The notes under the pieces were generated by a model, which saw only the letters and a list, made by a program, of their open reading frames with translations, was not told the origin of the DNA and ran no database searches. Position numbers and translations under genes: made by a program. A stretch of 47,779 bases of DNA. It comes from Christensenellaceae bacterium (GTDB lineage: Bacteria; Bacillota; Clostridia; Christensenellales; UBA1242). The stretch covers positions 1-47,779 of the forward strand of contig JAIRQZ010000009.1 in assembly GCA_031256235.1 (NCBI GenBank), read 5' to 3'. Shown in pieces: positions 2,436 to 43,792 of this stretch (positions are counted from its first letter, which is position 1; each line of letters begins with the position of its first letter).

Positions 2436-2627
2436 TTGAAAAACAAAGTTTTGATACTTGCGTATATGGGCACGGGCAAAACAGAAGTGGCGCGCCGTTA
2501 TCAAAATGTCGTCGACCACGACTTTCAAGATTACAAATTTATATACGACAAGTCCATAGCACACTTGCCGATTGTCATAAAACGTGGTCAATTCTTGGAC
2601 GAAGTGATTAAACAACTTCTTTTTTAG
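2436..2627 (+). pseudogene. Short P-loop NTPase N-terminal fragment (possible gene remnant)
   Basis: A TTG immediately after the tRNA CCA opens KNKVLILAYMGTGKTEVARRY (beta strand plus Walker A GTGKT). The frame stops after about 63 codons and its end overlaps the clpX 3' end. Confidence 0.25.
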
Positions 2628-3921
2628 GTATAGCCTTACACTCAAGTTTGGCGCGTTCGGACTTTTCGATAACGCGTTTCGTTATGAATACTTTGCCACT
2701 TTTTTCGGTTCCGCTGATTTCGGTTGGGGTTTCGTACATGATGTCAAGCATGCTTTCTTCAAGTATCGTTCGCAAGGCCCGCGCTCCAGTTTTTAACTGC
2801 ATCGCAAGTTCGGCGACGGCTTCAATGGCCTCGTCGTCGAAATCAAGTTCGATATTGTCAAGCGCGAACATTTTTTTGTACTGCTTTATAAGGGCGTTTT
2901 TGGGTTTGGTCAAAATTTTGACAAGCGCCTGTTTGTTAAGAGCCTGTAGCCCAACGATAATGGGCACGCGGCCGACGAATTCGGGGATGATACCGTATTT
3001 GACAAGGTCGACGGGCGAAACGGAATGAATATCGGCAATCTCTTGCGATTCGCCAGAATCCTCCTTTAGTTCCGCGCCAAAGCCCATGGATGTGCCGTGC
3101 AATCGGCTTGACACGATTTTTTCAAGGCCGACAAAAGCGCCACCCACGATGAAAAGGATGTTTTGAGTATTAATTTGGATGCATTCTTGGTTCGGATGTT
3201 TGCGTCCGCCTTGTGGAGGCACGTTTGCAATTGTGCTTTCAATAATTTTTAAAAGCGCCTGTTGCACACCCTCACCAGAAACGTCGCGTGTAATCGAGCG
3301 GTTTTCGCCTTTCTTGGCAATTTTGTCGATTTCGTCGATGTAAATTATTCCGCGTTCTGCGCGCGCAACGTCGTAATCGGCGGCCTGGATAAGTTTTAAC
3401 AAAATGTTTTCAACGTCTTCGCCGACATATCCCGCCTCGGTCAAAGCAGTCGCATCCGCTACGGCGAAAGGCACATCAAGAATACGGGCAAGCGTCCGAG
3501 CCATAAGAGTCTTTCCCGAACCCGTGGGGCCAATCATAAGGATGTTGCTTTTTTCAAGTTCGATATCGTCTTCTTTGTCTTTGCGGGATTTTGTCGCAAC
3601 CTTCTCGACATTGTTTTGTAATGTGGTTCGATCGGAAAGATTATAATTAACGCGCTTGTAATGATTGTAAACAGCAACGGCAAGGACCTTCTTGGCGGCG
3701 TCTTGGCCAATTATGTAATCATCCAACTTCGACTTGATTTCCGCGGGCGTCGGAAGTTTCAACAACGATGTTTCCGCAGTCTTGCGCTGTTCCATAAGCA
3801 TGATGTTGGAACATGTCGAGATGCACGAGTCGCAAATGAAACTTTTGCCGTTGGGACTGGCAATTATTTTTTTTACTTCATGGTTACTGCGACCGCAAAA
3901 ACTGCAAAATGTGTTAATCAT
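2608..3921 (-). CDS. clpX: ATP-dependent Clp protease ATP-binding subunit ClpX
   Basis: It has the N-terminal C4 zinc finger (CSFCG...CDSC), Walker A GPTGSGKT, Walker [10 protein letters not shown] and ClpX-typical length. Confidence 0.95.
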
Positions 3922-3949: not shown

Positions 3950-4528
3950 TTATCGCTTAACAAAAACTTTGTCGATAAGTCCGTAATCTTTTGCTTCGGC
4001 GGCCGTCATGTAATAGTCACGCTCGCAATCGGCAGCGACTTTGTCAAGTTGTTGGCCAGCATTTTCGGATAAAATTTTTGTAAGTTTCTTCTTAAGTTTC
4101 AATATGTGTTCGGCCTGGATTTGTATATCGGTTGCTTGGCCTTGCGCGCCACCCAAAGGTTGATGAATCATGATTTCACTGTTCGGCAAAGCATATCGCT
4201 TGCCTTTCGCGCCCGAGGACAACAGGAATGCCCCCATGCTTGCCGCCATGCCGACGCAAATCGTGGACACGTCGCATTTGATGTATTGCATAGTGTCATA
4301 AATCGCCAAGCCGTCGGTGACGCTTCCACCTGGGCTGTTGATATACAAACTTATGTCCTTGGTCGGGTCCTTGGCCTCCAAGAAAATCAGTTGCGCGATA
4401 ACAACATTGGCCGATTGGCTGTTGACCTCGCCGTTCAAGAATACAACGCGATCCTCCAAAAGACGGCTGTAGATATCATAACTACGTTCTCCGTTCCCCG
4501 TTTGGTCGATGACTATAGGTATTAACAT
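3950..4528 (-). CDS. clpP: ATP-dependent Clp protease proteolytic subunit ClpP
   Basis: [11 protein letters not shown], the catalytic Ser context [11 protein letters not shown] and MIHQPLGG match ClpP. The SD aggagg lies upstream. Confidence 0.95.
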
Positions 4529-4802: not shown

Positions 4803-5123
4803 TCAAAAAGGAGACACTTGACTAGGATTTTTACCTCTTGAATGGATAATAAGATCACAAACTATTGATTGAACGACCGCTTCATTACCTGTCACAATAG
4901 TTTTCACACGTCCTTCGTTCCTATTGTACTCGACGTCAACTTTGTAGTGAGAAATCTTTGTCTGCCATTTTTTGTTTTCTAAATGCCTTTTCAATGCACC
5001 GCATAGAGTTCGTTCGGATACATCGTCATAAAATAAGTCTTTGTCTATTTTCAAAAAAGAAGCATTTGCCTTTTCAAATAAGTCTAACAAAAATTCATAG
5101 TCTTCGTCACAATCGTAGTTCAT
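4803..5123 (-). CDS. Small protein with a partial PD-(D/E)xK nuclease-like pattern (last gene of island operon)
   Basis: SERTLCGALKRHLE ... YKVDVEYNR ... VCDLIIHSRG resembles helix-E plus the (P)D strand of restriction-endonuclease-fold proteins. The ORF ends 12 aa later without an (D/E)xK strand. The ATG at 5123 has SD aaggaaa; the ORF track starts at a TTG at 5147. Confidence 0.3.
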   Translation of the reverse strand: MNYDCDEDYEFLLDLFEKANASFLKIDKDLFYDDVSERTLCGALKRHLENKKWQTKISHYKVDVEYNRNEGRVKTIVTGNEAVVQSIVCDLIIHSRGKNPSQVSPF

Positions 5124-5133
5124 TATTTTCCTT

Positions 5134-5556
5134 TTATCTTTGTACAATTCCTAAATAGGATTCTTTATATCCATAATACCTCTTCAAATAAACAGCAGTA
5201 TTCATAACTGAAGCAAATGCAAAAACCGGAAGAGCCGATTTCATATTAAATAACAAACCTGCCCAAATATACGCAGAAAATGAAACATTAACCGTAAATA
5301 CAGGAAAAGCAAAATAGCATATTATATCAATAATTACAGAGTAGATTAGAATGGATACAGACCTTACTATCTGATTATTGAATCTTTTAAGCGCCAGTGA
5401 CACAAAGTAAATAACACCTAAATTGAGGAATAAAAATGGTATTGTATTTGCTGTTGACGTACAGAATAAATAAACAGCCAGAATTGCAAGCGCTCCATAA
5501 CCTATAAACTTGTTTTTTTGTGCTACCCCATACATTAGGAAACCTGATATTGGCAT
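5134..5556 (-). CDS. Small polytopic membrane protein (4-5 TM), possibly an ECF S-component-like vitamin-binding subunit
   Basis: Hydrophobic helices run throughout. A strong SD agggagga lies upstream. It sits directly downstream of a DUF4430 gene. The function is inferred from context only. Confidence 0.35.
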   Translation of the reverse strand: MPISGFLMYGVAQKNKFIGYGALAILAVYLFCTSTANTIPFLFLNLGVIYFVSLALKRFNNQIVRSVSILIYSVIIDIICYFAFPVFTVNVSFSAYIWAGLLFNMKSALPVFAFASVMNTAVYLKRYYGYKESYLGIVQR

Positions 5557-5570
5557 TTGTTAATCCTCCC

Positions 5571-6020
5571 TTAATACCCCCAGTAAGATGCGTCCACATA
5601 TCTTAAAACAATCACATCGCCGTCCTTCACTCGGTATGCAGAAACACCGACTGCTGCTTGCTGAAAGTTTACTTCAAATGCCCAAGCGTACCCTGTTCCA
5701 GCACCCCAATCATAGTTGTCATCCTTGCCCATCGCAGAAGTAATTAACATACCGTAACTTGACTCTGTGTATCCAAGTTGCATAACTGATTTATTCTCTT
5801 TTAAAATATCCGCAACTAGATTTGATTTATAATCTTTTGAACTTATGAACTTAATCTCCACCGCACTTTCGTCTAAAATTGAGATACTAATATTTTTAAC
5901 TGCAACTTTGGGAGCAGGTATCAATGTCCAAATCATTAATCCAACCAAAACAACTGCCAAAGCAATATTAATATATAACGATATTTTACTTGGTCGCTTG
6001 TTTTGTGGTTGATTATCCAT
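5571..6020 (-). CDS. Membrane-anchored DUF4430 (transcobalamin beta-domain-like) protein
   Basis: It has an N-terminal TM anchor (ISLYINIALAVVLVGLMIWTLI). The C-terminal GYAWAFEVNFQQAAVGVSAYRVKDGDVIVLRY matches the DUF4430 signature GWxYxVNGxxxxxGxxxYxLKDGDxIxWxY. Its start overlaps the rSAM stop (ATGGATAA). Confidence 0.6.
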   Translation of the reverse strand: MDNQPQNKRPSKISLYINIALAVVLVGLMIWTLIPAPKVAVKNISISILDESAVEIKFISSKDYKSNLVADILKENKSVMQLGYTESSYGMLITSAMGKDDNYDWGAGTGYAWAFEVNFQQAAVGVSAYRVKDGDVIVLRYVDASYWGY

Positions 6021-7902
6021 TGTTTCTCCCTTTAATTTTGTCTTCAGTATCTTTTCTTGTGAAAGTATAATACTTTAACACCTTAAGGATATCCTTGTCA
6101 TCCGTTAGCGAGCTTATATCAGAAAAATTATTTTTTTCAACTATCCCCTTAAGTATTGATAGTTTTTCTTCTGGAAGCGCCCTGTAATCTCTCCACCACC
6201 TTCCGGTGCCACCATTTTTTTTGTTCTCTTCGCGGTAGATAATAAACGCTTCTGGCATATAAAGTATTTTCTCAAATTCTTTTTCGTCTTTGCCAAATGC
6301 TACTTCAAAGAACCTCTTACCTTTTCCTATCTTCCCTTTTGTTGAATTTAGCACTGCTTGTATTGCTCTAATAAACTTACGGTTCCAATGTTTGCCAGTA
6401 TACTTGCGGTCTTTGTAGCTCCACTCATCTTCTTTCCCTTTGCCTGTGATAGGATGATATTTCATAGGAAATGAAAAAATACTGACCTTAAGTTCCTCAC
6501 AAAGGTCAATATTTAGCTTCATGCGCAAAAATAGTTCCTCCGGTTTATCGTTAAAGTTGTAAAGCATGTAATTTGAAAGTTCACGTATTCCACTTTTTGC
6601 AGCCATACGAACAGATGCTTCATATGTTTCTTTGCCAGCCCATTGGTCAAATGCAATGCGCAGTGGTGAGATATTTGTTTCGGCCAGCTTGTCCATTTTC
6701 TCTTGAGTAATAAGACGTGCGTCTACCCCTTGGTTAAAATCAATAATTCTTTTCAATGGTCCACGTTTAAAATACTTTGCAAAGAGTGGCGACATAAAGC
6801 TATCAAGCTCAAGTATTTTTTCCTTTGATGCCGAAAGATAATCACTACAAAATGCTCCGTTAATTTTGGATTCTGCTTCAGCGACTACGTCCTGCTTATC
6901 AAGTTTGGTCAATTTTTTTATTAGTTCTTTATATAAATCAACGCATACTCGAATGTATGCTCGCTCGTTAAAATTATCTCGTAAGTTTTTTATTGCAATC
7001 TCGTATTTGCTTTCAGGAATATAGGTCGCGCCGTGCTGAAAACCGCAACGTTTTATTTCATCAATAATATTTGAATAACACTTTGAAGCAAGCACATTAT
7101 TATCAAGCAAAAGCAAGTTCCGTTGTTCACCAAACCGCTCTTTTGATTTTGCAATTGTTTTTTCAAGCCCGATATAATGCTTAAACTCTGGCTCAAGCTT
7201 TGGTACAGCACAAAAACCACATTTATTTGTACACCCACGAGTCATATAAGCAAAGTAAGCGTCGTGCGCTGGGTACTTATACTCAACTTCTTCCAAAATC
7301 GAATAATCAAGAGGTAATTCATCAATTATGTTCGTATCACCTTCATCAATGATACCAGGCTTATCTAATTGCCTTTCGAATGGTCTGATCCCTGTTTCTA
7401 GTTCAATTTCGTCAGGTAATAAGGATGCCATTATTCCACCAACCATTATCCGTCCGTCTGGCTTTCGAAATTTGTTTGCAAAGTTTATTGTTTCAATAGT
7501 TTTACTCCAATAAAATGTAAAAAGTGTTGTAACGCCCACGAAATCATAGACCGGATTATTTTTTATATAATCCTTATTTTTGAAGTTCTTTCTTGATGTT
7601 TGAATTTGTTCGACAATCTCACTTGACAAAATTTTGCAGATAAAATCAAAATCTTCATTTTTACCATGGCGAATAAACCTAAAAAAAAGCGGCTCTTGGC
7701 CGCACCAAGATTTGTCTGCCATGGTACACAATTGTTCCATAAAACGGTCGTATATAACTTCAGCACGAAGATCAAGTTCGCTACCCTTAAAAAAACGCAC
7801 ATCATCACCGCGCTCTCGAAAATAAGTCGCAAGTTTCATCAACCCCATCGGTGGGTACTTGTTGCGATAGTTAGGTTCGATTAAAAGCACTTTTCTTTTC
7901 AC
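6013..7902 (-). CDS. Radical SAM enzyme with N-terminal B12-binding-like domain (class B type)
   Basis: The N-terminus VLLIEPNYRNKYPPMGLMKLATYFRERGDDV is a Rossmann-like B12-binding-domain pattern. The CxxxCxxC cluster is MTRGCTNKCGFCAV. It is 629 aa long with a long uncharacterised C-terminal region. The GTG start overlaps the upstream stop (TAGTG) and has SD aaggag. Confidence 0.8.
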   Translation of the reverse strand: MKRKVLLIEPNYRNKYPPMGLMKLATYFRERGDDVRFFKGSELDLRAEVIYDRFMEQLCTMADKSWCGQEPLFFRFIRHGKNEDFDFICKILSSEIVEQIQTSRKNFKNKDYIKNNPVYDFVGVTTLFTFYWSKTIETINFANKFRKPDGRIMVGGIMASLLPDEIELETGIRPFERQLDKPGIIDEGDTNIIDELPLDYSILEEVEYKYPAHDAYFAYMTRGCTNKCGFCAVPKLEPEFKHYIGLEKTIAKSKERFGEQRNLLLLDNNVLASKCYSNIIDEIKRCGFQHGATYIPESKYEIAIKNLRDNFNERAYIRVCVDLYKELIKKLTKLDKQDVVAEAESKINGAFCSDYLSASKEKILELDSFMSPLFAKYFKRGPLKRIIDFNQGVDARLITQEKMDKLAETNISPLRIAFDQWAGKETYEASVRMAAKSGIRELSNYMLYNFNDKPEELFLRMKLNIDLCEELKVSIFSFPMKYHPITGKGKEDEWSYKDRKYTGKHWNRKFIRAIQAVLNSTKGKIGKGKRFFEVAFGKDEKEFEKILYMPEAFIIYREENKKNGGTGRWWRDYRALPEEKLSILKGIVEKNNFSDISSLTDDKDILKVLKYYTFTRKDTEDKIKGRNNG

Positions 7903-9464
7903 TATGAAAACTCCTTTTCAATCATTGCTAATATTCTTTGATTTGCTTCTGCATCAACATTAATTGCAATAATATCAAGTATTTTCCCTATAATTTTGCG
8001 CTCTACTTTACTACATCTTTTTAATCTATCGGTCCACCAAGCCTTTTTATTCTTATTATCTTCATTTGTTTCTCCCACACTTTTCTCAACTATATTTGCA
8101 TCACGATGTGTTCTTATTATATTAGCAACTTTACCTTGCAACGAGTCTTCCTCTAGACTTTCAATCTTCTTTCTAATATCTGTTTCAGCCTTCTCGGCAT
8201 TCGCCCTTATTTCAGCAAGTTCGCTTTCAAGTTTGTTTTTTTCAGCATTCCCAACAAAAGAATTCTCTTTTTTCTTTTTATCAAATTCTTTCTTTTTAAT
8301 GTTATATATTTCGATTTTTTTGTAAGAGCTGTTTATAGATGATGCGTTGTAATAAGTTCTATAGAGCTCGTCGTCAAAATATTTTTTGAGTTCAACTTCA
8401 AACTTCTCGCTCGAAGAATTAGTGTTAAAATAATCACGCTGCGAATTAGGTATTAAGTTTTTATCTATTGTAAAAACTTCACCAATAAAATAATTATTGC
8501 CTCTGTCTTCTTTAAATAATTTTTCCAAAGCGTTTTCATCGCCAATTTGGATGTTTTCTTTTCTAAGCCTTATTCCTCGCATTTTGTTTGACTTTGGAAT
8601 GGCTTGTTTAAACTGGCAAACTCCAATCCATGACCAAGCAATTAAACTTTTATCGTCACTGTAAAAACCCTTGAACGCAATATCCTTGACCTCGTCATAC
8701 TTTTTCTCACCATTTGTTAAGTGCGTAATGTATTTTTTATAAACATCTTCACCATTTATTTTAACAATATATTCATCAATTGGATACCCTATTTCCTTTG
8801 CTTGCTTGTAAATCTCTTCACGAAATCTAAATGTGTTTTGATAAGGAACAGGTGCTACAAATGATAGATATTCTTTAACTTTAATAATGTTTAATAAACC
8901 ATTATTGTGTTTGTCAATATTCTCTAATTTTACAACAAAAAAATGGCTTTCAGTATTCTCCGTTTTTTCTGAACTGAAGGAGTAAATTTCTTTCAATATT
9001 TCGGTAGCACTATATTTTTTCTCTTTTGTTTGATGCTTGTTTAAGAGCTCACGCATTCTTTTGGCATCACAGGACATTGTTGAAATAATATTTTCACCCT
9101 TGCATTTTGTTGAAAAAACTAGTTTATCACAAAATGCCATTCCGCAAAGCCTTCCTATTCCACGAAATCCCTTATCTTCGCCAAGTGTTTTATCTGAACT
9201 TGCCACATTAACTAATATCCTTTGGAAATCATCTTTGGATATTCCTGTTCCGTTATCTTTAATTTCAATACTTTTTGCAGATTGGTCTATCCATATTTCA
9301 ACTAAACCCTCATTTTTATTAGAAATTATTTCTTGTTCAACTGCTTTATCAATAGAATCACAAGCATTTTGAATATATTCTCTATAACAAACGAAGGGAT
9401 TTTTATACATCCCTGTCGTTAAACTATCTAAAATATTCGCACCAAAAATAATTTGTTCTTCCAT
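7902..9464 (-). CDS. GHKL (Bergerat-fold) ATPase, MORC/Hsp90/MutL-like, with C-terminal coiled-coil
   Basis: It has N box EYIQNACDS, G1 box DNGTGIS and G2 box GFRGIGRLCG. The C-terminal region is Lys/Glu-rich heptad-like (NKLESELAEIRANAEKAETDIRKKIESLEE). Confidence 0.75.
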   Translation of the reverse strand: MEEQIIFGANILDSLTTGMYKNPFVCYREYIQNACDSIDKAVEQEIISNKNEGLVEIWIDQSAKSIEIKDNGTGISKDDFQRILVNVASSDKTLGEDKGFRGIGRLCGMAFCDKLVFSTKCKGENIISTMSCDAKRMRELLNKHQTKEKKYSATEILKEIYSFSSEKTENTESHFFVVKLENIDKHNNGLLNIIKVKEYLSFVAPVPYQNTFRFREEIYKQAKEIGYPIDEYIVKINGEDVYKKYITHLTNGEKKYDEVKDIAFKGFYSDDKSLIAWSWIGVCQFKQAIPKSNKMRGIRLRKENIQIGDENALEKLFKEDRGNNYFIGEVFTIDKNLIPNSQRDYFNTNSSSEKFEVELKKYFDDELYRTYYNASSINSSYKKIEIYNIKKKEFDKKKKENSFVGNAEKNKLESELAEIRANAEKAETDIRKKIESLEEDSLQGKVANIIRTHRDANIVEKSVGETNEDNKNKKAWWTDRLKRCSKVERKIIGKILDIIAINVDAEANQRILAMIEKEFS

Positions 9465-9479
9465 TGTTTACCTCTAATT

Positions 9480-11159
9480 TTACTTAAATTGCTTATATAT
9501 TGGTTTTGGGAATCTAACTTTTAATAAAGACCTGAATACTGGATTTTGCAAGATATACTCTCCTTGATCTAATCGTGTGAGCATATTCTTGTAAGTTGAA
9601 TGGATACTTGAATAACTACTTGTTGAGGTTTCTATTGAGTTTGTTCGCCCGTAAGCGTGTGTCGCACAGTTTCCAGTGACACGTTTGTGAATATCAGACC
9701 TAAACTGTTCTGCACCAAACAACACAACACCCAATGAACGACCTCTCTCTGCTACATCCAATATTCCTCTAAGTATAGGTGAATGCTTTGGCGCATCTGT
9801 GCCAGCATATTTATTTAATTCATCAATAAAAACAACAATACGCTCCGGTGGATTTACACCATGTTCCTCGCTGAAAACATCTTGCTTGAGGTCGTAAATA
9901 GTTCTTAAGCAATCACCGAAAACAAAAGCCTGCTTATCCTCCGCCAGCTTTGCAATATCTACAACAAAAACATCATTTGCTTTAATTTGCTTTAATTCGT
10001 CTTGCAAACGACATTCATTGTTTTGTTTGCTAAATCCATTTGCGAACATGCTATCGTTTTTAATAGCTTTTGAAACTATTCTTTTAAACTTGCGCCAACT
10101 CATAATTGAGATTTCATCTTTCTGTGATTTCGGGTCACCTTTCTGTGTCTTTTCAGAAACTTTATCTAAGAAATCCTGCCAAGTGTCAAGACCGTTAAAC
10201 TCACCATCGCCAATTATCTTTTCAATAATTGACTCCATTGTCTGCGTAGTATCATCAATATTTGCAAACATCATCTCGATGCTTTCTTTATCATCTTTAT
10301 ACAGATATTTATATTTCTTCAACTGTTGTGCTCTTATGTAATTATCAACATCGTCTTTACCCATGTATGTAGATTGACGCGAATCAGAGGACGCAGAGTA
10401 TGGGATAAAATATTTAACATTTTCGAACGGTTTATCGATTAAACCTAATCTTTTGTATTCTTCTTTTACCTTAACTGACGCATCGCTTTCGTTCTCTTTA
10501 TCAATGGCCAACAAATCTCTGCCCTTAACATTAAAAATTACAAAAGCAGTTTTGCGCGCATCTTCGTTTTGTTGATTATAATCTTGAATAGCTTTAAGCA
10601 AAAACATTGCGTATGAAGTTTTTGTAGCCAAACCAGAAATACCTGAAATATTCAAATGTGCTCCTTCTGGACCAAGTAGAAATTCACTATTAAGATGTAC
10701 TGGCAAGATAACTGGGTTTTCTGTTCCAGCATACATTTTTAAAGAACCGCAAAGTAATTTGTGTTCAATTTTGTCAAGACCTAATGCCTGTATGATTTCT
10801 TCTTCGGTAGCTAAATAAACCTTATCATTATTGTGAACAGGTGTTTCATTGCCTTTAGTATTAAATGAAACTTTTGCTTCTACATAATTCATACCTACTC
10901 GCAACGTCGGTTCCAGCAACTCTGTGTCGCCAAAATCCGAAGAAATGAAGTTAGTTAAGAAACTTTGTGCGTCAGTAATATGCAAAATATTTTCGATGAC
11001 ACCAAAAGTATGTGAACCATCTCTTCGTTCCACTTTTACAACATCAAAAGCGTGCAACCTTAGATCAGAGTTTGTCCAAAATTTGAACTCATCGATTGTG
11101 GTCGGATACTTCTCCGTCGCCAACACCTTACCAATTGCCACTTTAGTTTCTTTTCCCAT
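9480..11159 (-). CDS. HerA/FtsK-superfamily ATPase (HerA-like, DUF87-type)
   Basis: The N-terminal barrel-like segment is IGKVLA...FDVVKVER...TFGVIENI. It has a deviant P-loop NISGISGLATKTSYAMFLL, Walker B RIVVFIDELNKY and a downstream RSLGVVLFGAEQ...THAYGRT. The start is set at the ATG at 11159 with SD aaggaga; the ORF track extends to 11219. Confidence 0.65.
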   Translation of the reverse strand: MGKETKVAIGKVLATEKYPTTIDEFKFWTNSDLRLHAFDVVKVERRDGSHTFGVIENILHITDAQSFLTNFISSDFGDTELLEPTLRVGMNYVEAKVSFNTKGNETPVHNNDKVYLATEEEIIQALGLDKIEHKLLCGSLKMYAGTENPVILPVHLNSEFLLGPEGAHLNISGISGLATKTSYAMFLLKAIQDYNQQNEDARKTAFVIFNVKGRDLLAIDKENESDASVKVKEEYKRLGLIDKPFENVKYFIPYSASSDSRQSTYMGKDDVDNYIRAQQLKKYKYLYKDDKESIEMMFANIDDTTQTMESIIEKIIGDGEFNGLDTWQDFLDKVSEKTQKGDPKSQKDEISIMSWRKFKRIVSKAIKNDSMFANGFSKQNNECRLQDELKQIKANDVFVVDIAKLAEDKQAFVFGDCLRTIYDLKQDVFSEEHGVNPPERIVVFIDELNKYAGTDAPKHSPILRGILDVAERGRSLGVVLFGAEQFRSDIHKRVTGNCATHAYGRTNSIETSTSSYSSIHSTYKNMLTRLDQGEYILQNPVFRSLLKVRFPKPIYKQFK

Positions 11160-11169
11160 TTTTTTCTCC

Positions 11170-12366
11170 TTAAAATAACTGCAGAAAACTCTCTGCTGAT
11201 ATATATTTTGATTTGACATATGTTTCTGTCATATACATCGGATAAATATGATTTGCCCATCGTAAATCCGAGCCATAACACACTGGGTTTCGCTCGTTTA
11301 TGATATACGCACTCAACGTGTCCACTAACTCGCTGTCAATTCCGTTTTCAATTTCTTCGCTTGTTACTAGCATCTTTTCTACTTTTAATATTCCGTCAAA
11401 TGGAGTCCTAGTTTTCTCTTGACCTTGTAAACGAATATACCAAACAGCAAAGTCAACATCACCACAGAATTCATTATGATAACGCGCCACAGGAGTTCTA
11501 CTATACAATGGCAAATCTGCAATAAATCCTGGATTTGGTTTCCCATTAATATCGCAACAAACTGAAGGATTAAAATGCTTGGACGCACCTAATACGAAAT
11601 TGTAATTCTGTTTAAACTTCGCAAATTGTTTCTTTTTCTCCTCTTTAGTTATATCTTTTTCATAAACAGGTTGAGAGTATTCAAGCGAGCCATCTTTCAC
11701 TAAATAATTATTTTGGTCTAGTTTTCCTTGGCTGACAAATAATGCAACCATTTCTTTTTCTTTTTCAATCATTCTGTCCTGGACTTTTGCAGTCGCTCGG
11801 TCTTCACACTCTCCATCTTTCTTAATATCATTAGTTTTATAACCCAAAACAGATCCGATTTTAATGCCGAGTCTTTTTAATTGATTACAAGTTTGTGAAA
11901 TCTTTAAGGCGAGTTGCGAAAAGAACTCTTCTTTTCTATCGGCATTAGCTTTCTCAGGCACGGCTAAAACAATTTCGTTAATGCATCTTTCCTGTTTTAA
12001 TATTCTATTTTTTCGTTTACAACATCCTACTCCTATTTGCCCAGCAATTATTGGATAAATTTCCATGCGATTACCCGAAGCATCATAACCCACATTATCA
12101 ACTTTATATACCTTCCTTGATCCATCTAAAAAATAAGTTAATATTTGTGAATCCCCATGTGATAGTTCTTTAGCCTTTTGTGTCAAATTTATCCATGTTT
12201 TATACTTTTCAGTTTCGCCGTATTTTTGCCACACATTTGATTTTTCTCTTTCGTCAAAACTTATTGCCGAATAATCGCCACTATCTAAACTATATTTACG
12301 CGCCTTATAACTTTTCCCACCTGTTTCGGTTTCGAGGATAGCGGTTATCTTTCGTTTTTCTAACAT
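11170..12366 (-). CDS. NurA-like nuclease
   Basis: It has two DGS motifs in beta-strand contexts (LTYFLDGSRKVY and YLVKDGSLEY) and a C-terminal ANHIYPMY segment, as in NurA-domain proteins. It lies immediately upstream of a HerA-like ATPase, the canonical pairing. Confidence 0.5.
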   Translation of the reverse strand: MLEKRKITAILETETGGKSYKARKYSLDSGDYSAISFDEREKSNVWQKYGETEKYKTWINLTQKAKELSHGDSQILTYFLDGSRKVYKVDNVGYDASGNRMEIYPIIAGQIGVGCCKRKNRILKQERCINEIVLAVPEKANADRKEEFFSQLALKISQTCNQLKRLGIKIGSVLGYKTNDIKKDGECEDRATAKVQDRMIEKEKEMVALFVSQGKLDQNNYLVKDGSLEYSQPVYEKDITKEEKKKQFAKFKQNYNFVLGASKHFNPSVCCDINGKPNPGFIADLPLYSRTPVARYHNEFCGDVDFAVWYIRLQGQEKTRTPFDGILKVEKMLVTSEEIENGIDSELVDTLSAYIINERNPVCYGSDLRWANHIYPMYMTETYVKSKYISAESFLQLF

Positions 12367-12375
12367 ATGAACTTA

Positions 12376-12404
12376 TATGTATCACAAATTTACATGAAAG
12401 TCAA
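12376..12404 (-). promoter_or_regulatory. Candidate promoter of the island operon
   Basis: On the minus strand it reads TTGACT, a 17-nt spacer ending in TGa (extended -10), then TACATA. The -10 ends 9 nt before the ATG at 12366, and there is no SD. Confidence 0.35.
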
Positions 12405-12459
12405 ACCCAAAAACATCACGAAAGTCCAGTTAACAGTACACTACTTTGCTTTTCATACT

Positions 12460-13383
12460 TCAAACGAGAGACAAATAATGATCAAGCGACTTCTCTGCGA
12501 CTGAAATTACCAGCTTAACAAATGTGGTATAATCTTTTGTAACGTGCGCATGGTCGAGCGCGTCATAGTACTCAAGGCGCTGTTCCCTACGAATTATTAA
12601 TGGCGGGAAGCCATTCTTAATCGCAATGAAATTCATCAGTAGCCTTGCAGTGCGCCCGTTGCCGTCAACGAAGGGGTGGATTCTAACAAATTCACCATGA
12701 AGTAATGCCGAAACGACAAGCGGATGGTATTGCTTTGACCAGGTCTTTAAGTCAAGCGTTAGTTGTTCCATTTGTTCAGGAACGAAAATATGGTCCGGGG
12801 GAATATGTGTGGCGCCGGAAATGATAACCTTCTCGTTGCGATAACGGCCAGCGTTCTCTTGGTCGATTTCTTTTAATACAAGCTGATGAATACTTTTGAT
12901 GTCGCGTTCAATGAGAACAGAATTCTTACTTACTAGCTCCTCAAGATACAAGATTGCCTCTTTGTGGTTTATTGCCTCAAGATGTTCCTTAACGCTCTTG
13001 CCACCAATTGTGATGCCCTCGAGGACAACCTTTGTCTCTTTAAGTGTTAAAGTATTTCCTTCGATACCGTTGCTGTTGTATGTCCATTCAATAAGTTCGT
13101 TGGACTTGATGCTTTTAATCGTCGCAATCGGAAAGGGACGCTTACTGTTTAACAGTGCAAGTTTTTCATCGATGGTTGCAAGGTTACTTGGCAAGTTAAT
13201 TATGAACTCACTTGGCTTTACACTAACACGAGTATCACGTGGCTTCTTAACATCGTTTGGAATCAGCCAGGATTTACCCATTTTGGTTGCACCTTGGATG
13301 CGCCCTTCTTCTATGAGTTGCCTTATTCTTCTTTCGCTTATGCCCCATTCTTTCGAGAGGTCGTTCAAGGTTTTGTATTCCAT
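12460..13383 (-). CDS. Fic family protein (class II, AMPylase-type) with N-terminal HTH
   Basis: It has the Fic motif HPFVDGNGRTAR, the intramolecular inhibitory motif SNGIEGN ((S/T)xxxE(G/N)) and an N-terminal excisionase/MerR-like HTH (LSKEWGISERRIRQLIEEGRI). Confidence 0.9.
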   Translation of the reverse strand: MEYKTLNDLSKEWGISERRIRQLIEEGRIQGATKMGKSWLIPNDVKKPRDTRVSVKPSEFIINLPSNLATIDEKLALLNSKRPFPIATIKSIKSNELIEWTYNSNGIEGNTLTLKETKVVLEGITIGGKSVKEHLEAINHKEAILYLEELVSKNSVLIERDIKSIHQLVLKEIDQENAGRYRNEKVIISGATHIPPDHIFVPEQMEQLTLDLKTWSKQYHPLVVSALLHGEFVRIHPFVDGNGRTARLLMNFIAIKNGFPPLIIRREQRLEYYDALDHAHVTKDYTTFVKLVISVAEKSLDHYLSLV

Positions 13384-13605: not shown

Positions 13606-14748
13606 TTATTTTGCCTCCTTTAATTTATTATGTGTTTCAAGGAATTTTATAACCGAATCAAAGTCTTTCAAGTTTTCTTTCTTTGCAATGGCGTCCAAAA
13701 TAAGGGCGACTTTTGCGCTGTTTTGGGCGTTATTGCGTTGGATTTTTTCAATCTTTTCCACGGTCGACCCGATTGCAGTTGCGTACATTTCAAGAGTATA
13801 GCCACTTTGTGCAAGACTTTGCTGGGTGTCGTGCATTATTTGATGAAAATATCGGGCGACAAGTTTATCGTGCACATCAACTTTTGTGTTGTCGCAAATC
13901 ACGCGCAACAGCTCTTGTTCGTTAAGTTTGTCACTTTCGATTTTGGATTGCTTTTCCAAACGCGCTCGAATGTCCTTTTTGAACTCGGCCAAGGTGTTGA
14001 ACTCGCTTGATTCCTTTGCCAAATTGTCGTCAATCGCAGGAATTTCACGGATTAGGATGTTGCGGATTTCAACTTTAAAAACGGACTTTGCGCCTGCCAA
14101 TTCCTTGGCGTGGTAGTCTTTTGGGAAAGTCACGTTCACATCAAGTTTGTCACCAACTGTTTTGCCAACAAGTTGTTCTTCAAACGTGTCGATGAACGAA
14201 TGCGAACCAATTTCAAGTTCATGGTTTTTGGCCTCGCCACCCGCAAACTTTTTGCCATCGACAAAGCCCGTGAAATCGATAACCGCGATATTGCCGTTTG
14301 CGATTTTGTGACCTTTGTCCGCCGCGATTTGACGAGTACGGCCACCAGCCACACGAGCCAGGAAACCGTCAACTTCTTTGTCTGTGACTTTTATTGTTTT
14401 TGAATTAATCTCAAGCCCCGTATATTTGCCAAGTGTGAATTTGTCCTGGACTGGGATTACCGCAATAAACTCGATACCGTCAGGTTTTTGGCTTATATCA
14501 ACCTCGGGGTCGTCCAAAGGCGTCACATTCGGGTTACCTTCCAGATACTTTGAAAAGGCCTTGTTGAACAGTGCATTGAAAGCAGGTTCAGTAAAAACAT
14601 CGCCATATTCCTTTTCAATCATGCCGCGTGGAGCGTTGCCGTCGCGAAAGCCCTTGACCTTGTATCGGGCGCCCTCGCGCTTGCAAGCCTCGTCCATAGC
14701 GGTGTCGACCTGCGCCTTTGTGAAGTTAAATTTTGCTGTTACATTCAT
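13606..14748 (-). CDS. tig: Trigger factor (compact, 380 aa)
   Basis: It has the ribosome-binding motif GFRDGNAP and the FKBP-type PPIase segment VIDFTGFVDGKKFAGGEAKNHELEIGSHSFIDTFEEQLVG. Confidence 0.9.
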   Translation of the reverse strand: MNVTAKFNFTKAQVDTAMDEACKREGARYKVKGFRDGNAPRGMIEKEYGDVFTEPAFNALFNKAFSKYLEGNPNVTPLDDPEVDISQKPDGIEFIAVIPVQDKFTLGKYTGLEINSKTIKVTDKEVDGFLARVAGGRTRQIAADKGHKIANGNIAVIDFTGFVDGKKFAGGEAKNHELEIGSHSFIDTFEEQLVGKTVGDKLDVNVTFPKDYHAKELAGAKSVFKVEIRNILIREIPAIDDNLAKESSEFNTLAEFKKDIRARLEKQSKIESDKLNEQELLRVICDNTKVDVHDKLVARYFHQIMHDTQQSLAQSGYTLEMYATAIGSTVEKIEKIQRNNAQNSAKVALILDAIAKKENLKDFDSVIKFLETHNKLKEAK

Positions 14749-25960: not shown

Positions 25961-27466
25961 ATGAAAAAACTTGCGATAATTTTATGTACGGTTATGCTTG
26001 CGGGAATTATAAGTTTCGCGGGCGGGATCCAAGCATTCGTTCACGCTTCGGCAAATTGGAACATCACAAACTACAAGGTCTTTTATATCGGGGCAAAAGA
26101 TGGCGTTTATAAAACGACCTCGCCCGCTTTATTCACAAAAACAGGTATCAATCCTTTGATCGCGGCGGAATTGATGAGAATTTTGAACGAAGTCGGCTTT
26201 GACGAAACAAAGACTGCCGAGGACTTTTCAAACTTTGCGCATAAAGGTGATAATTTGGACTTTCAAACTGGTGCAGTTTATATTCGGCTTTTCGACCGAT
26301 TGACAACATCGGGGACCGACGCAGTCAAGGCCTTTACGGGCAATGATGATGTCGGAGCGCGTTGGTGGCAGGCGGTTTACATGGGCAAAGACACCGTCGG
26401 CAACGACATATTGACGCTTATGATGGCCGAGCCTTACCGCGACAGCCCGTTCAGTGGCACGACCTATGCGACAAGCGCGGCAAGGGCAAATCTTTTAACG
26501 GATTTTGCAGGCGTTTTAAGTGCATATCCGAGTGCGAGTGCAACCATTGCGACGACCAATATTCCATGGCAAGTCGGCCAAGCAAATTCCGTAATAACTT
26601 TCGAGGATGACGAGGACGAGTTTCTTAACCCAGGTTTAAATTCGGACGACAAGGTCTGGTTGCCGTCGGTATACGAGACTTCGATTATGCCTGGCGTGGA
26701 TGACGAAAAGTTGGTTTCAAGCATTGATGCCGACGGCAATCTTGATGATTGGAACAGGACGGGTCTTTGGAAATTGAACGGTTTTGACAGGGGTTTTTTG
26801 CCAAGCGCAACGTATGGTGAAAGTTTGCTTCGGTCACTTTCGACAGACGGGGCTTTTGTGGGTACTTTGGACAGTTCGGACCCCAGTGCCATTTATTCTG
26901 AAGGCGGTCCATATCAAGCGGGCTTGCGGCCTTGCATAAACATCAAATTGTCGGCCATAAGAACAGCACAAATTTATGCGGGCTTTGCAGCAGGAAGCGC
27001 GGCGGCATGGGATGCAGGGGTAAGCACGACGGGCATTAACGGCACAAGCGGTAAAAGCATCAGCGTATTCGGAGGCGGGCTTGGCGATGTCGTGTCGATT
27101 ACTTACTTTTCGGGAAGCAGGCGCAAAATAAGCGGAATCACAATCAATGATATCGAGATAGCCATTGCGTCAAGTTTAAGCAAGGCCGAGTGGCAAGAAA
27201 CAATTACAGGTGCGAAGTTCCGTGCATGGTATGCAAATGATTCGGCTCAAATGGTCAAGGTAGAATTTAAAGATATCAACAACACAAACTTTACATATAA
27301 CACTCCTCTATTTGTTACCGCGACAACCGAAAAATGGACAGGTGGTGGCGGAAAGAAAAAGTTTGATGTTAAAACTTTCGGCTATGTCGCTGGTGGAATT
27401 GCGGTTGTGCTTGCAAGTGCTGCGGTTTTTGTTGCGCTCAAGTCACGAAAAAGTACCGAAGCCTAG
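25961..27466 (+). CDS. Secreted protein with C-terminal TM anchor
   Basis: It has a signal peptide (MKKLAIILCTVMLAGIISFAGG) and a C-terminal helix plus basic tail. It also has a VWLPS...LLRS...GLRPCINIKL pattern like surface-protein domains of the DUF6273 type. SD gaagagg. Confidence 0.55.
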   Translation: MKKLAIILCTVMLAGIISFAGGIQAFVHASANWNITNYKVFYIGAKDGVYKTTSPALFTKTGINPLIAAELMRILNEVGFDETKTAEDFSNFAHKGDNLDFQTGAVYIRLFDRLTTSGTDAVKAFTGNDDVGARWWQAVYMGKDTVGNDILTLMMAEPYRDSPFSGTTYATSAARANLLTDFAGVLSAYPSASATIATTNIPWQVGQANSVITFEDDEDEFLNPGLNSDDKVWLPSVYETSIMPGVDDEKLVSSIDADGNLDDWNRTGLWKLNGFDRGFLPSATYGESLLRSLSTDGAFVGTLDSSDPSAIYSEGGPYQAGLRPCINIKLSAIRTAQIYAGFAAGSAAAWDAGVSTTGINGTSGKSISVFGGGLGDVVSITYFSGSRRKISGITINDIEIAIASSLSKAEWQETITGAKFRAWYANDSAQMVKVEFKDINNTNFTYNTPLFVTATTEKWTGGGGKKKFDVKTFGYVAGGIAVVLASAAVFVALKSRKSTEA

Positions 27467-41029: not shown

Positions 41030-43720
41030 TTACTTTTTTTTGCCGTCGCCCGAGAGTGCGTATGCAAGGCCCGAGCCCAAAGTTGCGATAACAAAGACGC
41101 CAAGGAGAACCGACCAGATGATGATTTTTTTGATGTCTTTGCCACCGGTAGGGACTTCTTCGACGCCTTTCCAAATGTTGTCGCGGTCGATGGTGTCGCC
41201 TTCGTCGCCGTCGTCGGGTTCGGGTTCGGTGATAGGTTCATCGGGGTCTTCGGTTTCGGGGCCAGTCAATCCCAAAAGTTTGATTGTTGTGCCGTCGTTC
41301 CAAATCAAATATGGGATGTCCCCATCGGTGTTGCTACCATGTGAAGGATTGTGAAGCGGTGAGTTACTTAATGCCCAAATGTTCAGGACAGTAACAGTTT
41401 CTTCCTCGGTAAGGCCTTGGATAGCGACACCGTTGCCGATTGCCTTGTTAAGGCAGGCCTCGACCAACGCGATTTCGACAGGCGTGATTTGGTCTTCGGG
41501 TTCCAAAGTTTCGTTATATTCGGCGACAGTATTCAAATAGTTTTGAACAAAGTTAGCGATATAGTTTGTAGCATAGTTGTCCTTGAATGTTTGAAGTTTT
41601 TCGGGTGTGTTTACGGGTTCCCAGTACTTTTCAGCAAGGGCAAACAAAAGGTTTGGGACATTACCTTGAGCGTCGATTAATGCCGAGTCGTCTGGATAAA
41701 CTTCCTTGAAGACTTTTTTAACATCGTTAATGGGGAGCCTATCAAACTGTTCCGCATTCATTGGACGTTGATAGAACGGAACCCAATCGACAGGTTGGTC
41801 GAAGTAACCTTCCACGGCATACAATGCACTCAGTTGTTGCATGTGTTGCGCAGCATTTACACCAGCCCAGTTTGTGGCAGTTGTTGTAGGAAATGCCGAG
41901 GTTTTCAATATTTTGTATAACTCTTCAGTTACCCATACTGGTGTATTTGGAACACTGTTAACACCATAATATTCCCTTTCATAGAATTGTTCGAGGTACG
42001 TTTTTTGGTAATAGTAGTTATTACCAAGCGTACTGAATATCGCAGTAGACATTACGTAGTTTGATGCGATGAATTGTTCCTTGAAGGATGCGATTAATTC
42101 TTCCCTGTATGCCTTGTTAATAACATTGGTCATGTCGAACGTATAATAAAGATTGTCTTGGTTGTTTAAAAAGAACGTAAGTTTTGCTTCCATGGTCGTA
42201 ACACTACCACAAACGCTATGCACATTGTCGCCCTCGCCGATAACCTGCCCATCGTTCAATACGTTAGTGACAACTGTAGCACCCAACCCTGCTTGTCCCA
42301 CAACACCACCAACAAAATCAGCACCCGTTACGTCACCAGTATTTTGTGAATTAGTGATGTGCACATTAGCGTCTCCGACGATACCGCCTATTTGGTTGCC
42401 CGTCCCAGTTACATCTCCCGAATTGACACAATTGACGCATCCTCCGGTAGACGAATAATACGCGCCCGCGATGCCACCCACCTTGTTCTTCCCGCTGACA
42501 TCACCAGAATTCCAACAGTTAGCCACGTCGCCATAAACCCATCCCGCAATACCGCCTACGCCGTTGTATTCGCTGTTAGGTGCACTTATGTCACCCACGT
42601 TAAAGCAATTTTCAATGTTGATACCGTTGTTCGCCATCCCGACGATACCACCCACGTAGCCTTTGTCATTCGAGACTGGTGCCTCATTGCTACAATTTCT
42701 GATGATACCAGCGAACCCGCCACCACAAATACCGCCCGCATACATTGACGCACCAAGCGTTAAAGTCCCATAGTTGTGGCAATTTTCAATTACAGAACCC
42801 GGCAAACCATTTCCCCAATATCCGATGATACCACCCGAATAACCGTTGTTTGTATTTTCACGCGTGATGTCGCCATAATTGATGCAATTTGATATTTTTG
42901 TTAAAATCCCCGACGAAATGTATGAAATGATGCCTGCAAGATAACTTACATTTGTTCCCGATTTTGCAATAATTCGTCCACGGAATGTACAGTCTTTGAG
43001 TGTTACGGAAGGAGTAGAGGAACCTGCGTCAAAAGCAATTCCAGCCCCCCCCAAAGATGTGCCGTCGACATGTACATTTTCAACATAGAGCCCACGAGGG
43101 CTGGTCTGGCTACCTGTATCTGGGTCCCAATAAGAACTGCCATAGGCTGTTCGTAATAAGGCGCCTGCATTCGCTTTGGTTATGTAAACATTTTTGAGGT
43201 TAAGGTTTTTCACAGAGAGCCCACAACCTTGTACGACGCCAAAGAGTCCGTCGCCATACATGCCATAAATCGTGTGTCCGTTGCCATCAAAATTTCCACA
43301 AAAGCTATTTGGACCAATCTCGGCCCATTTATTAAGGTGACTGTCGTCGAAACCTTCGGTTCCCCACATATCATAATCCGAGATATCGTTAAGATAGATG
43401 TCATTGGTAAGAATGTAATGAATGCTACTGTCGCGTTTGGTGTATTTTTTTTCAATGTCGCCGTACTGTTTTGACGCCCATTGCAGGAAGGCCAACTCGG
43501 CACCGTTTGAAATCCTGTACGGATTCGATTCGGTGCCGATGTCGGTTGGCATTAATTCCGGGTCGGCGGTTTCATTTGCAAACCTTTCGGCAATGTCCCC
43601 CGACCAAATTGTCGCCGCGTTTGTGTTGCCTGCCTCGATTCCAACGAACACCGCGCAAAGCGATGCAAGTATAAAACAGACCGATGCAACAATAGCAGAA
43701 AAGAGTCTTGTGTTTTTCAT
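41030..43720 (-). CDS. Large surface protein with GLUG-motif repeats, signal peptide and C-terminal TM anchor
   Basis: It has repeated GGIAG / GGIVG ... N(C/S)xNxGDV(S/T)G units, the signal peptide MKNTRLFSAIVASVCFILASLCA (start at 43720 with SD agggaga), an acidic stalk and a C-terminal TM helix. Confidence 0.7.
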   Translation of the reverse strand: MKNTRLFSAIVASVCFILASLCAVFVGIEAGNTNAATIWSGDIAERFANETADPELMPTDIGTESNPYRISNGAELAFLQWASKQYGDIEKKYTKRDSSIHYILTNDIYLNDISDYDMWGTEGFDDSHLNKWAEIGPNSFCGNFDGNGHTIYGMYGDGLFGVVQGCGLSVKNLNLKNVYITKANAGALLRTAYGSSYWDPDTGSQTSPRGLYVENVHVDGTSLGGAGIAFDAGSSTPSVTLKDCTFRGRIIAKSGTNVSYLAGIISYISSGILTKISNCINYGDITRENTNNGYSGGIIGYWGNGLPGSVIENCHNYGTLTLGASMYAGGICGGGFAGIIRNCSNEAPVSNDKGYVGGIVGMANNGINIENCFNVGDISAPNSEYNGVGGIAGWVYGDVANCWNSGDVSGKNKVGGIAGAYYSSTGGCVNCVNSGDVTGTGNQIGGIVGDANVHITNSQNTGDVTGADFVGGVVGQAGLGATVVTNVLNDGQVIGEGDNVHSVCGSVTTMEAKLTFFLNNQDNLYYTFDMTNVINKAYREELIASFKEQFIASNYVMSTAIFSTLGNNYYYQKTYLEQFYEREYYGVNSVPNTPVWVTEELYKILKTSAFPTTTATNWAGVNAAQHMQQLSALYAVEGYFDQPVDWVPFYQRPMNAEQFDRLPINDVKKVFKEVYPDDSALIDAQGNVPNLLFALAEKYWEPVNTPEKLQTFKDNYATNYIANFVQNYLNTVAEYNETLEPEDQITPVEIALVEACLNKAIGNGVAIQGLTEEETVTVLNIWALSNSPLHNPSHGSNTDGDIPYLIWNDGTTIKLLGLTGPETEDPDEPITEPEPDDGDEGDTIDRDNIWKGVEEVPTGGKDIKKIIIWSVLLGVFVIATLGSGLAYALSGDGKKK

Positions 43721-43792
43721 TGTGTTAGTTTCTCCCTTTATCACAAATTTAACACCCTTTTTGTATTTTGTCAAGCGGTTTCAGCATCTTTT

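Follow-up and report, generated by a model that had tools for sequence, protein, structure and literature searches.

Several described prokaryotic systems share components with the gene cassette reported here. The NurA-HerA end-resection complex of Deinococcus radiodurans has been structurally solved (PDB 7F6D/7WRW; PMC9960219). HerA is also combined with an effector enzyme in the anti-phage systems Sir2-HerA and DUF4297-HerA, which are located in defence islands and mobile elements (PMC11472057, PMC11514289, PMC11291478). GHKL ATPases have been found in restriction systems by Iyer et al. (PMC2292703), and radical S-adenosylmethionine (SAM) enzymes, in the following abbreviated as rSAM, are a core component of putative or validated defence systems, as in prokaryotic viperins and in Ophion. 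Here, a four-gene operon is described that encodes a putative NurA-like nuclease (gene A), a HerA-type ATPase (gene B), an Hsp90-like GHKL ATPase (gene C), and a class-B-like rSAM enzyme (gene D). It is located on the minus strand of a 47,779-nucleotide stretch of DNA from a Christensenellaceae bacterium (contig JAIRQZ010000009.1, positions 1 to 47,779), which is referred to as the window. The cassette belongs to no catalogued system; most likely, it is a new system directed at the DNA of phages or plasmids. Pfam and NCBIfam hold no family specific to its proteins, and a full-text literature search, which covered few subscription journals, found no description of the cassette or of a GHKL-rSAM pairing. 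An earlier interpretation of the same DNA, made from the letters and their translations and here called the sequence-only reading, had known of no characterized pairing of this kind either, and none was found in PADLOC, NCBIfam, or the literature searched.

Gene order, cohesion and spread of the cassette

The cassette starts with gene A (11170-12366), which encodes the NurA-like protein of 398 amino acids (aa). The mechanically called open reading frame (ORF) of gene B comprises 579 aa (9480-11219); its likely start is the ATG at 11159 (M21), 10 nucleotides (nt) after the stop codon of gene A. This is followed by gene C (7902-9464, 520 aa, ATG start), which was assigned with Pfam, profile and Foldseek searches, and by gene D (6013-7902, 629 aa, GTG start), which was assigned by its cluster motif, an AlphaFold2 (AF2) model and Foldseek. 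Related loci were gathered around rSAM homologs in metagenome and genome contigs and by a GTDB scan with one genome per species; the latter gave 488 matches in 185,579 genomes, the best 80 of which were used. In every one of about 90 loci with enough upstream DNA, tblastn searches with the window proteins found the identical order A-B-C-D, with proteins of about 390, 565, 520, and 625 aa, respectively. These loci span bacterial phyla and two methanogen genera. The intergenic gaps within the cassette are tiny, and in other loci genes A and B are mostly separated by 9-17 nt or overlap by 4 nt. When pairwise distances over 54 cassettes are compared between the four proteins, their matrices correlate at r = 0.94-0.96, and the four genes are thus one unit that is inherited and transferred together. 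The sequence-only reading had treated the GHKL and rSAM genes as a pair. This pair is one half of a four-gene cassette with the NurA-like nuclease and HerA genes directly upstream, so the question shifts from a clamp and an rSAM enzyme to a nuclease-translocase combined with a GHKL-rSAM system.

The junction of genes C and D reads ATTGAAAAGGAGTTTTCATAGTG on the minus strand. At TAGTG (7900-7904), the GHKL stop codon TAG (7904-7902) and the rSAM start codon GTG (7902-7900) overlap at G7902, and an AAGGAG Shine-Dalgarno motif for the rSAM gene (7911-7916) lies 8 nt 5' of the GTG within the 3' end of the GHKL gene. Both elements had been read correctly from the sequence before, as had the 629-aa rSAM ORF at 6013-7902. 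The GHKL ORF likewise exists at the coordinates assigned to it; that both genes lie on the minus strand had been left unsaid. A one-base overlap of stop and start is in itself ordinary in operons; its conservation exceeds chance. The distance from the GHKL stop to the rSAM start ranges from -26 to +7 nt in 77 of 84 related loci and from -4 to +7 nt in 75 of them, and the outliers are loci in which the called GHKL ORF is truncated or split. The tight coupling proposed from the window is borne out by a deeply conserved adjacency that is seen in both gene orders, and gene D matches no NCBIfam metabolic family. This is clearly not the combination of a known metabolic rSAM family and an unconserved adjacency that the sequence-only reading had named as speaking against its proposal. 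In a promoter scan, promoter-like sites were no commoner than in shuffled sequence, and a terminator scan was likewise uninformative.

The four-gene type occurs mostly in anaerobic hosts, which include Clostridia, Bacteroidales, Cloacimonadota, Planctomycetota, Chlorobiaceae, Coriobacteriia, and Gastranaerophilales as well as the archaea Methanosarcina and Methanomethylovorans. Cultured strains with the cassette are Desulfosporosinus orientis DSM 765 (CP003108, about 2.50-2.52 Mb), Frisingicoccus caecimuris DSM 28559, and Anaeromicropila populeti 743A. Across phyla, identity amounts to about 50-60% (50-57% in the GTDB scan), which indicates horizontal transfer. Full cassettes were also found in IMG/VR, on 8 contigs in a first scan and at 14 loci in a second scan, with some contigs shared between the two. 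All four proteins retain intact, conserved catalytic motifs; the P-loop of gene B has a non-canonical form. The rSAM family as a whole is distinct and comprises at least 7,969 clusters at 90% identity according to a word-index search; clustering at 50% identity leaves 434 representatives with E <= 1e-30 and 2,253 with E <= 1e-3.

The four encoded proteins

Gene C encodes a GHKL (Bergerat-fold) ATPase with N-box, G1 and G2 motifs (ExxxNxxD, DxGxG, GxxGxG), in which E29, N33, D36, D70, G74, and G99-FRGIG-104 are invariant, and it matches the Pfam model HATPase_c_3 (3.7e-11, 43.6 bits; cut-off 25). Its approximate domains on the minus strand are a Bergerat N-domain (aa 25-205, nt 8850-9392), a middle domain (aa 206-346, nt 8427-8849), and, in the AF2 model, a long helical tail (aa 350-519, nt 7908-8417). 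A PDB search with a profile of 27 orthologs retrieved the N-domains of Hsp90, HtpG, TRAP1, and GRP94 at 1e-9, and all 60 matches listed belong to the Hsp90 family. The AF2 model (pLDDT 79.5), which was built from an alignment of database matches, gave the same result with Foldseek: the best 50 matches are all Hsp90, TRAP1, HtpG, or GRP94 structures (E 1e-14), and these cover the N-terminal and middle domains over about 410-450 aligned columns. Judged by sequence and predicted fold, gene C is therefore Hsp90-like and not MORC-like.

The sequence-only reading had proposed a MORC-type DNA clamp with a coiled-coil tail. The clamp is not supported by these Hsp90-family matches, and the MORC-specific motif GhXhhpXXRhl described for the S5-fold domain (Iyer et al. 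2008, PMC2292703) is missing: in the segment G297-IRLRKENIQI, position 5 is an arginine instead of a hydrophobic residue and position 9 is an isoleucine instead of arginine. What gene C has in common with the prokaryotic MORC and paraMORC GHKL-S5 ATPases is its occurrence in operons with nucleases (PMC2292703). The long helices predicted for residues 350-519 make the coiled-coil tail plausible. A true HtpG was considered as well and ruled out. Gene C shares the Bergerat motifs and the N-terminal and middle fold with Hsp90 and HtpG; however, it scores only 40.9 bits against the NCBIfam HtpG model, far below the cut-off of 371 and with only residues 10-91 aligned, and it carries the helical tail of about 170 residues in place of the Hsp90 C-terminal domain.

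Some cassettes carry further GHKL genes. A second paralog (479 aa, about 28% identical to gene C) follows directly after the rSAM gene together with a gene for a 250-aa partner in loci L001-L003 (11909-14126) and L030 (9909-12134); neither protein has a significant PADLOC match. Locus L088 has a second GHKL copy downstream, too. The GHKL family is thus itself modular.

For gene D, the AF2 model (pLDDT 87.4) predicts a Rossmann domain that resembles B12-binding domains at the N terminus (aa 1-170, nt 7393-7902; helices are inserted at residues 41-113), followed by an rSAM barrel (aa 214-480, nt 6463-7263) that is interrupted by a helical insertion of about 80 residues (aa 298-376, nt 6775-7011), and an all-helical C-terminal domain (aa 489-628, nt 6019-6438), all encoded on the minus strand. 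The CX3CX2C motif CTNKCGFC, which had been recognized in the sequence-only reading, is located at residues 223-230 (nt 7213-7236), and its cysteines C223, C227, and C230 do not vary among 34 close homologs or among 18 diverse family members. Among the cysteines, only these three and C285 are invariant in the homologs, which makes an auxiliary cluster unlikely. The N-terminal Rossmann domain had also been noticed before. It is B12-binding-like according to a Pfam B12-binding match below threshold (5.4e-5, 23.5 bits; cut-off 32.1), the assignment of PF02310 to some homologs, and Foldseek matches to class B enzymes. The about 250 residues that had been thought to follow the core shrink to about 140 (489-628); the remaining extra length is accounted for by the insertions at 298-376 and 41-113.

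The best Foldseek matches of gene D are TsrM (6WTF), MgmA (9CCB), and AprD4 (6FD2) with E values of about 1e-5, TM scores of 0.35-0.54 and 9-13% identity, and the model also matches the rSAM structures of HydG, ThiH, and NosL. At the sequence level, the Pfam Radical_SAM match is below the cut-off (6.5e-3, 17.1 bits versus 29.5), PDB searches with the single sequence or a profile gave nothing useful, and NCBIfam has no family for the protein; phrog_9298 is matched at 1e-34. The CX3CX2C motif together with the modeled barrel places gene D in the radical SAM superfamily. With a Rossmann B12-like domain preceding the CX3CX2C barrel, the predicted architecture is class-B-like, as in TsrM, MgmA, and AprD4, and cobalamin may be bound. 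AprD4 has a B12 domain and is nevertheless a B12-independent enzyme, and the N-terminal LLxEP...PPxGL motif is typical of the group comprising class B rSAM enzymes and B12-domain look-alikes. Gene D differs from these class B enzymes in its two large helical insertions, its distinct C-terminal helical domain, its scores below the Pfam cut-offs, and a motif set of its own (DFNQG, LRIAFD, FPMKY, HWNRKF). Invariant throughout the family are the motifs LxEPxY, PPxGLxK, RGCxxxCxFC, DNN, DFNQG, LRIAFD, LYN, FPM, and HW. For a segment rich in Lys, Trp, and Tyr, the sequence-only reading had suggested nucleic-acid binding. The HWNRKF motif, which is conserved across the family and located directly past the last barrel strand, is as likely to have a role in the substrate site as to belong to a DNA-binding surface.

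Gene B is a HerA ATPase of the FtsK-HerA superfamily by similarity: it matches HerA chain 7f6d_B of the D. radiodurans NurA-HerA structure in a PDB search (E 1.5e-41) and, weakly, the PADLOC model mad8 (1.7e-9) and the NCBIfam HerA/CedD models. Its Walker B motif FIDE (464-467) is conserved and normal. The identification of gene A as NurA-like is the weakest of the four assignments and the similarity is marginal. It is based on orthology, because the window protein itself has no Pfam match. The Pfam NurA model matches 4 of 27 gene A orthologs with a best E value of 4.9e-5, and the ortholog in L009 exceeds the curated cut-off with 22.7 versus 21 bits. PDB searches with the single gene A sequence or a profile returned no match, and NCBIfam has no family for it. 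Invariant residues of gene A are D81 (in FLDGSR), E203, D225 (in KDGSL), and H373.

Distant relatives and genomic setting

More distant members of the rSAM family occur in other arrangements. In Alphaproteobacteria (Novosphingobium pNL1, Rhizobium, Mesorhizobium, Sphingomonas), plasmids and chromosomes encode an rSAM protein of about 540 aa that is about 34% identical to gene D. Here, the rSAM gene precedes the homolog of gene C (E 1e-54 to 1e-63), which is the reverse of the order in the cassette. Located 5' of this rSAM gene is a gene for a DGQHR/DndB-like protein (PADLOC DpdB, 7e-11). The alphaproteobacterial clusters also hold a PIN_8 nuclease and a second gene C paralog, and in many of them genes for a ParB_N-like protein and an SNF2 helicase are found upstream. 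A proteobacterial and phage variant (L089, L090, L100-L102, L108-L116) reaches up to nine genes, among them those for the ParB_N-like, an about 140-aa, the SNF2, the DndB/DpdB-like, the rSAM, the GHKL, the PIN_8, and the second GHKL protein.

With an alignment of the whole rSAM family, 79 loci were recovered from IMG/VR; a scan of viral contigs with a single protein, the rSAM of Marinitoga camini virus 1, gave no match. Among these 79 loci, 14 carry the full A-B-C-D cassette and 12 carry reverse-order rSAM-GHKL pairs, two of which are accompanied by a DndB-like gene. Ten loci have only the GHKL and rSAM members within the set of hidden Markov models used, and several such pair-only loci carry ParB-like, SNF2, DndB-like, HNH-WYL, or PIN_8 genes alongside. 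In longer phage forms, the start of the rSAM gene overlaps a gene for a 767-aa DndB-domain protein (L104, 4648-8173) or for a fusion of a DEAD helicase with an N6-N4 DNA methylase (L129/L130, 4734-8080), and other longer phage-borne rSAM genes adjoin those of DnaB-like or HerA-like proteins. About 30 phage contigs in IMG/VR (L148-L181) encode short rSAM proteins of about 280-320 aa, like phrog_9298, within replication and modification modules. The commonest neighbor of these short forms is a DNA methylase (8 of 110), followed by ParB_N and by replication and recombination genes (RecA, RecT, DnaB). The temperate Thermotogae phage Marinitoga camini virus 1 (KP836355; L103, 4404-8230) has a minimal rSAM protein of 360 aa with the motifs LLIEPKYY...PPLGLLK and CIRKCPFC. 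Its gene is convergent with its neighbors, which carry HerA and NurA annotations, and the cluster lies near a resolvase and regulator region and has no GHKL gene. Across these arrangements, the GHKL-rSAM pairing survives a changed gene order and a changed nuclease partner, and the rSAM family is consistently accompanied by proteins for binding, moving, cutting, or modifying DNA.

In the window, positions of about 5000-13000 form a low-GC island (31-39% GC versus 41-46% in the flanks) between the trigger factor gene tig (13606-14748) and clpP/clpX (3950-4528 and 2608-3921). The rest of the window is of housekeeping character with genes for RNase J, RecJ, a Mur ligase, Obg, ClpC, McsB, and Tgt; a 914-aa ORF (41030-43774, minus strand) and a 501-aa ORF (25961-27466, plus strand) have no Pfam match at E <= 1e-5. 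Elsewhere, the cassette is found in settings of integrative elements, with genes for integrases, ParB, NikA-like (relaxase-type) proteins, HipA, and TnpV nearby, and other cassettes adjoin SIR2-TPR and PLD-helicase genes or IS21.

Directly upstream of the cassette in the window, a gene on the minus strand (12460-13383) encodes an HTH_17 and Fic protein of 307 aa, which matches the PADLOC models PDC-S04 (1e-38) and SoFic (7e-31). Because all other loci lack this gene, it was rejected as part of the cassette and is probably an independent single-gene candidate for defence within the island. Downstream of gene D, the start of a minus-strand gene for a 149-aa DUF4430 protein with an N-terminal membrane helix overlaps the rSAM stop by 8 nt, and a gene for a 140-aa multi-pass membrane protein follows (both within 5134-6020, minus strand). 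DUF4430 is transcobalamin-like, a curious neighbor of an rSAM enzyme with a B12-like domain. Because of the start overlap, the DUF4430, 140-aa, and 114-aa genes were considered as cassette members and rejected, since none of the 88 other loci contains them. NCBIfam has no family for the small proteins encoded downstream of the rSAM gene.

Proposed function, rival explanations and known systems

The four-gene operon is proposed to be a DNA-directed conflict system against phages or plasmids that consists of two modules and follows a logic similar to restriction-modification. The probability of this reading as a whole is roughly 45%. A role in conflict or defence, taken by itself, is rather probable, whereas the specific logic of self-marking is less likely than not. 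In the first module, the GHKL ATPase would dimerize via its ATP lid and helical tail and work with the rSAM enzyme, which, with a [4Fe-4S] cluster, SAM, and possibly cobalamin, would chemically modify or process DNA. In the second module, the NurA-like protein and HerA would form an ATP-driven nuclease-translocase that degrades DNA. As in restriction-modification, the rSAM-dependent mark might shield self DNA from the nuclease; alternatively, a lesion or mark placed by the rSAM enzyme on invading DNA might direct the invader to the nuclease. The role of A and B as a DNA-degrading complex is suggested by what is established for NurA-HerA (PMC9960219). Cooperation of C and D, with C as an ATP-gated dimeric partner, is suggested by their conserved adjacency and coupling, and DNA, or possibly nucleotides, would be the substrate of the rSAM enzyme as judged from the neighborhoods of its relatives. 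A defence role is suggested by the mobile and patchy occurrence of the cassette and by its neighbors: the Fic/SoFic-like gene in the window, SIR2-TPR, PLD-helicase, and HipA genes elsewhere, and flanking proteins with PADLOC matches. More speculatively, the rSAM enzyme might install a novel radical-mediated, possibly cobalamin-dependent DNA modification that serves NurA-HerA as a self or kill mark, with the Hsp90-like GHKL protein as DNA-loading or gating partner, and phages might use the stripped-down rSAM protein beside DNA methylases to pre-modify their own genomes; this extended version as a whole is rather unlikely.

Several observations weigh against a DNA-directed conflict system. At E <= 0.01, A, C, and D are without a match in PADLOC-DB 2.0.0 and B has only a weak one to mad8, so the defence role rests on neighborhood and mobility. 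The PADLOC matches among 140 proteins flanking 28 cassettes (PDC-S01 six times, type IV restriction and PbeA four times each, AbiEi, DpdF, and PsyrT three times each) are raw counts that are not normalized to the genomic background, and the 'viral' contigs of IMG/VR may be prophages or other mobile elements. The P-loop of HerA is GISGLAxKT (193-201), at least 98% conserved, where GxxxxGK[ST] is expected. No recognized DNA-binding domain was found in the rSAM protein, and its substrate is unreadable from the sequence. The cassette type of the window is without a DndB-like gene: none was found in the window cassette or in 88 related loci, except for one weak match in L068. The argument for DNA modification thus comes from distant relatives. 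The loci L004, L006, and L013, moreover, have a GHKL gene broken into two ORFs (303 + 159 aa; in L004 at about 8430-9999) next to intact NurA-like, HerA, and rSAM genes. This is awkward for a strict restriction-modification logic. The split may be a sequencing error, as the near-identical locus L005 has an intact GHKL gene of 523 aa, or it may be real decay.

Tolerance of a GHKL frameshift alongside intact nuclease genes would fit better with an infection-triggered effector without self-marking. In such a system, the Hsp90-like GHKL protein would sense a phage cue or be activated by it, the rSAM enzyme would damage or modify DNA, either that of the invader or all DNA in the cell, or produce an antiviral nucleotide analog in the manner of viperin, and NurA-HerA would degrade DNA, resulting in abortive infection. 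Sir2-HerA and DUF4297-HerA are reported to be of the abortive or effector type (PMC11291478, PMC11472057, PMC13434337), and the pairing of the GHKL family with varied effector-like partners (PIN_8, the 250-aa protein, rSAM) is what would be expected of a sensor or regulator. However, no PADLOC pVip model matches the rSAM protein, the cassette lacks conserved companion genes for nucleotide kinases or phosphatases, and the DndB/DpdB-like, ParB-like, SNF2, and DNA-methylase company of the relatives is more typical of constitutive DNA modification. An effector of this kind is a serious alternative but still an unlikely one. An improbable alternative is a module for DNA repair or maintenance that mobile elements carry, in which the rSAM enzyme would reverse or process a lesion, the GHKL protein would act like MutL or Hsp90, and NurA-HerA would resect ends for recombination. 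Spore photoproduct lyase is a precedent for DNA repair by an rSAM enzyme, and phage-borne rSAM relatives are found among RecA, RecT, and DnaB genes. In archaea and Deinococcus, NurA-HerA is chiefly known for the resection of DNA ends (PMC9960219, PMC12977600). A repair function is difficult to reconcile with the very patchy distribution (the 488 matches in 185,579 species genomes) and with transfer across phyla on low-GC islands or integrative elements near defence and toxin genes instead of housekeeping repair genes, and spore photoproduct lyase is not among the best Foldseek matches of gene D.

If the sequence-only reading is taken literally, genes C and D would be self-contained, with a MORC-type clamp loading a cobalamin-dependent rSAM enzyme onto nucleic acid. 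The tight coupling, the deep conservation of the adjacency in both orders, the class-B-like fold, and the ten IMG/VR loci in which the models used found only GHKL and rSAM are consistent with this. Yet the GHKL protein is Hsp90-like and lacks the MORC motif, several of the pair-only loci do have ParB-like, SNF2, DndB-like, HNH-WYL, or PIN_8 genes, AprD4, which ranks among the best Foldseek matches, works without B12, and in the cassette type of the window the pair never occurs without the upstream NurA-like and HerA genes. A self-contained pair is accordingly given little credence. An rSAM enzyme for metabolism, cofactor synthesis, or peptide maturation that has a chaperone-like Hsp90 partner and no link to nucleic acids is very improbable. 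Most characterized class-B-like rSAM enzymes (TsrM, MgmA, AprD4) do act on small molecules, peptides, or proteins, and in the window the DUF4430 and multi-pass membrane protein genes follow the rSAM gene; these two are, however, found in none of the 88 other loci. The cassette has no conserved association with a gene for a precursor peptide, a transporter, or biosynthesis, NCBIfam provides no metabolic family match, and conserved partnership is limited to a nuclease, a DNA translocase, and proteins that bind or modify DNA.

Should the cassette prove to be a defence system, it would be a widespread one, and its enzyme combination of rSAM, Hsp90-like ATPase, and NurA-HerA is present in no catalogued system. 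It occurs in hundreds of species, mainly anaerobes from gut and sediment, and in methanogenic archaea. If the rSAM enzyme acts on DNA, this would represent new chemistry for epigenetic self-marking or for damage of invader DNA and would assign a function to an rSAM family of about 430 clusters (50% identity, E <= 1e-30). Bacterial NurA-HerA and Hsp90-like GHKL ATPases would, if the proposal is true, be given a definite role in genome conflict. The variant from Proteobacteria (Novosphingobium aromaticivorans pNL1 at about 58-66 kb, Rhizobium plasmids) is found in aerobic, culturable hosts, which makes the question directly testable.

In comparison with known systems, genes A and B resemble the NurA-HerA end-resection complex in being adjacent, with the nuclease gene first as in NurA-HerA operons. 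In contrast to that complex, they are always encoded in one operon with GHKL and rSAM genes and on mobile islands, have no linkage to Mre11-Rad50, and show a non-canonical HerA P-loop and a marginal NurA similarity. From the HerA-based anti-phage systems, whose PADLOC models are unmatched, the cassette differs by its NurA-like effector and by the additional conserved GHKL and rSAM proteins. Its rSAM protein belongs to another family than the viperins, without a pVip match, and is far larger and equipped with a B12-like domain. Ophion, which consists of rSAM, PHP, and PRTase proteins (bioRxiv 10.1101/2025.09.30.679545), was the sole recent rSAM defence system found in the literature searched and was rejected as a prior description because its partners are unlike those of the cassette. 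Further papers were set aside as well: a reappraisal of Dnd mentions rSAM only for DndC, the rSAM protein of an archaeal 'dark matter' paper is unrelated, papers on NTP-dependent conflict systems and on T. kivui are not relevant, and a classification of Sir2-HerA merely cites an HXS-repeat rSAM protein. Dnd phosphorothioation and Dpd 7-deazaguanine modification are approached by the distant rSAM relatives, in which DndB/DpdB-like, ParB-like, and SNF2 proteins are combined with a nuclease module. No DndA, DndC, DndD, DndE, DpdA, or PP-loop enzyme was seen; unlike in Dnd and Dpd, the putative modifying enzyme would be the rSAM protein together with its GHKL partner.

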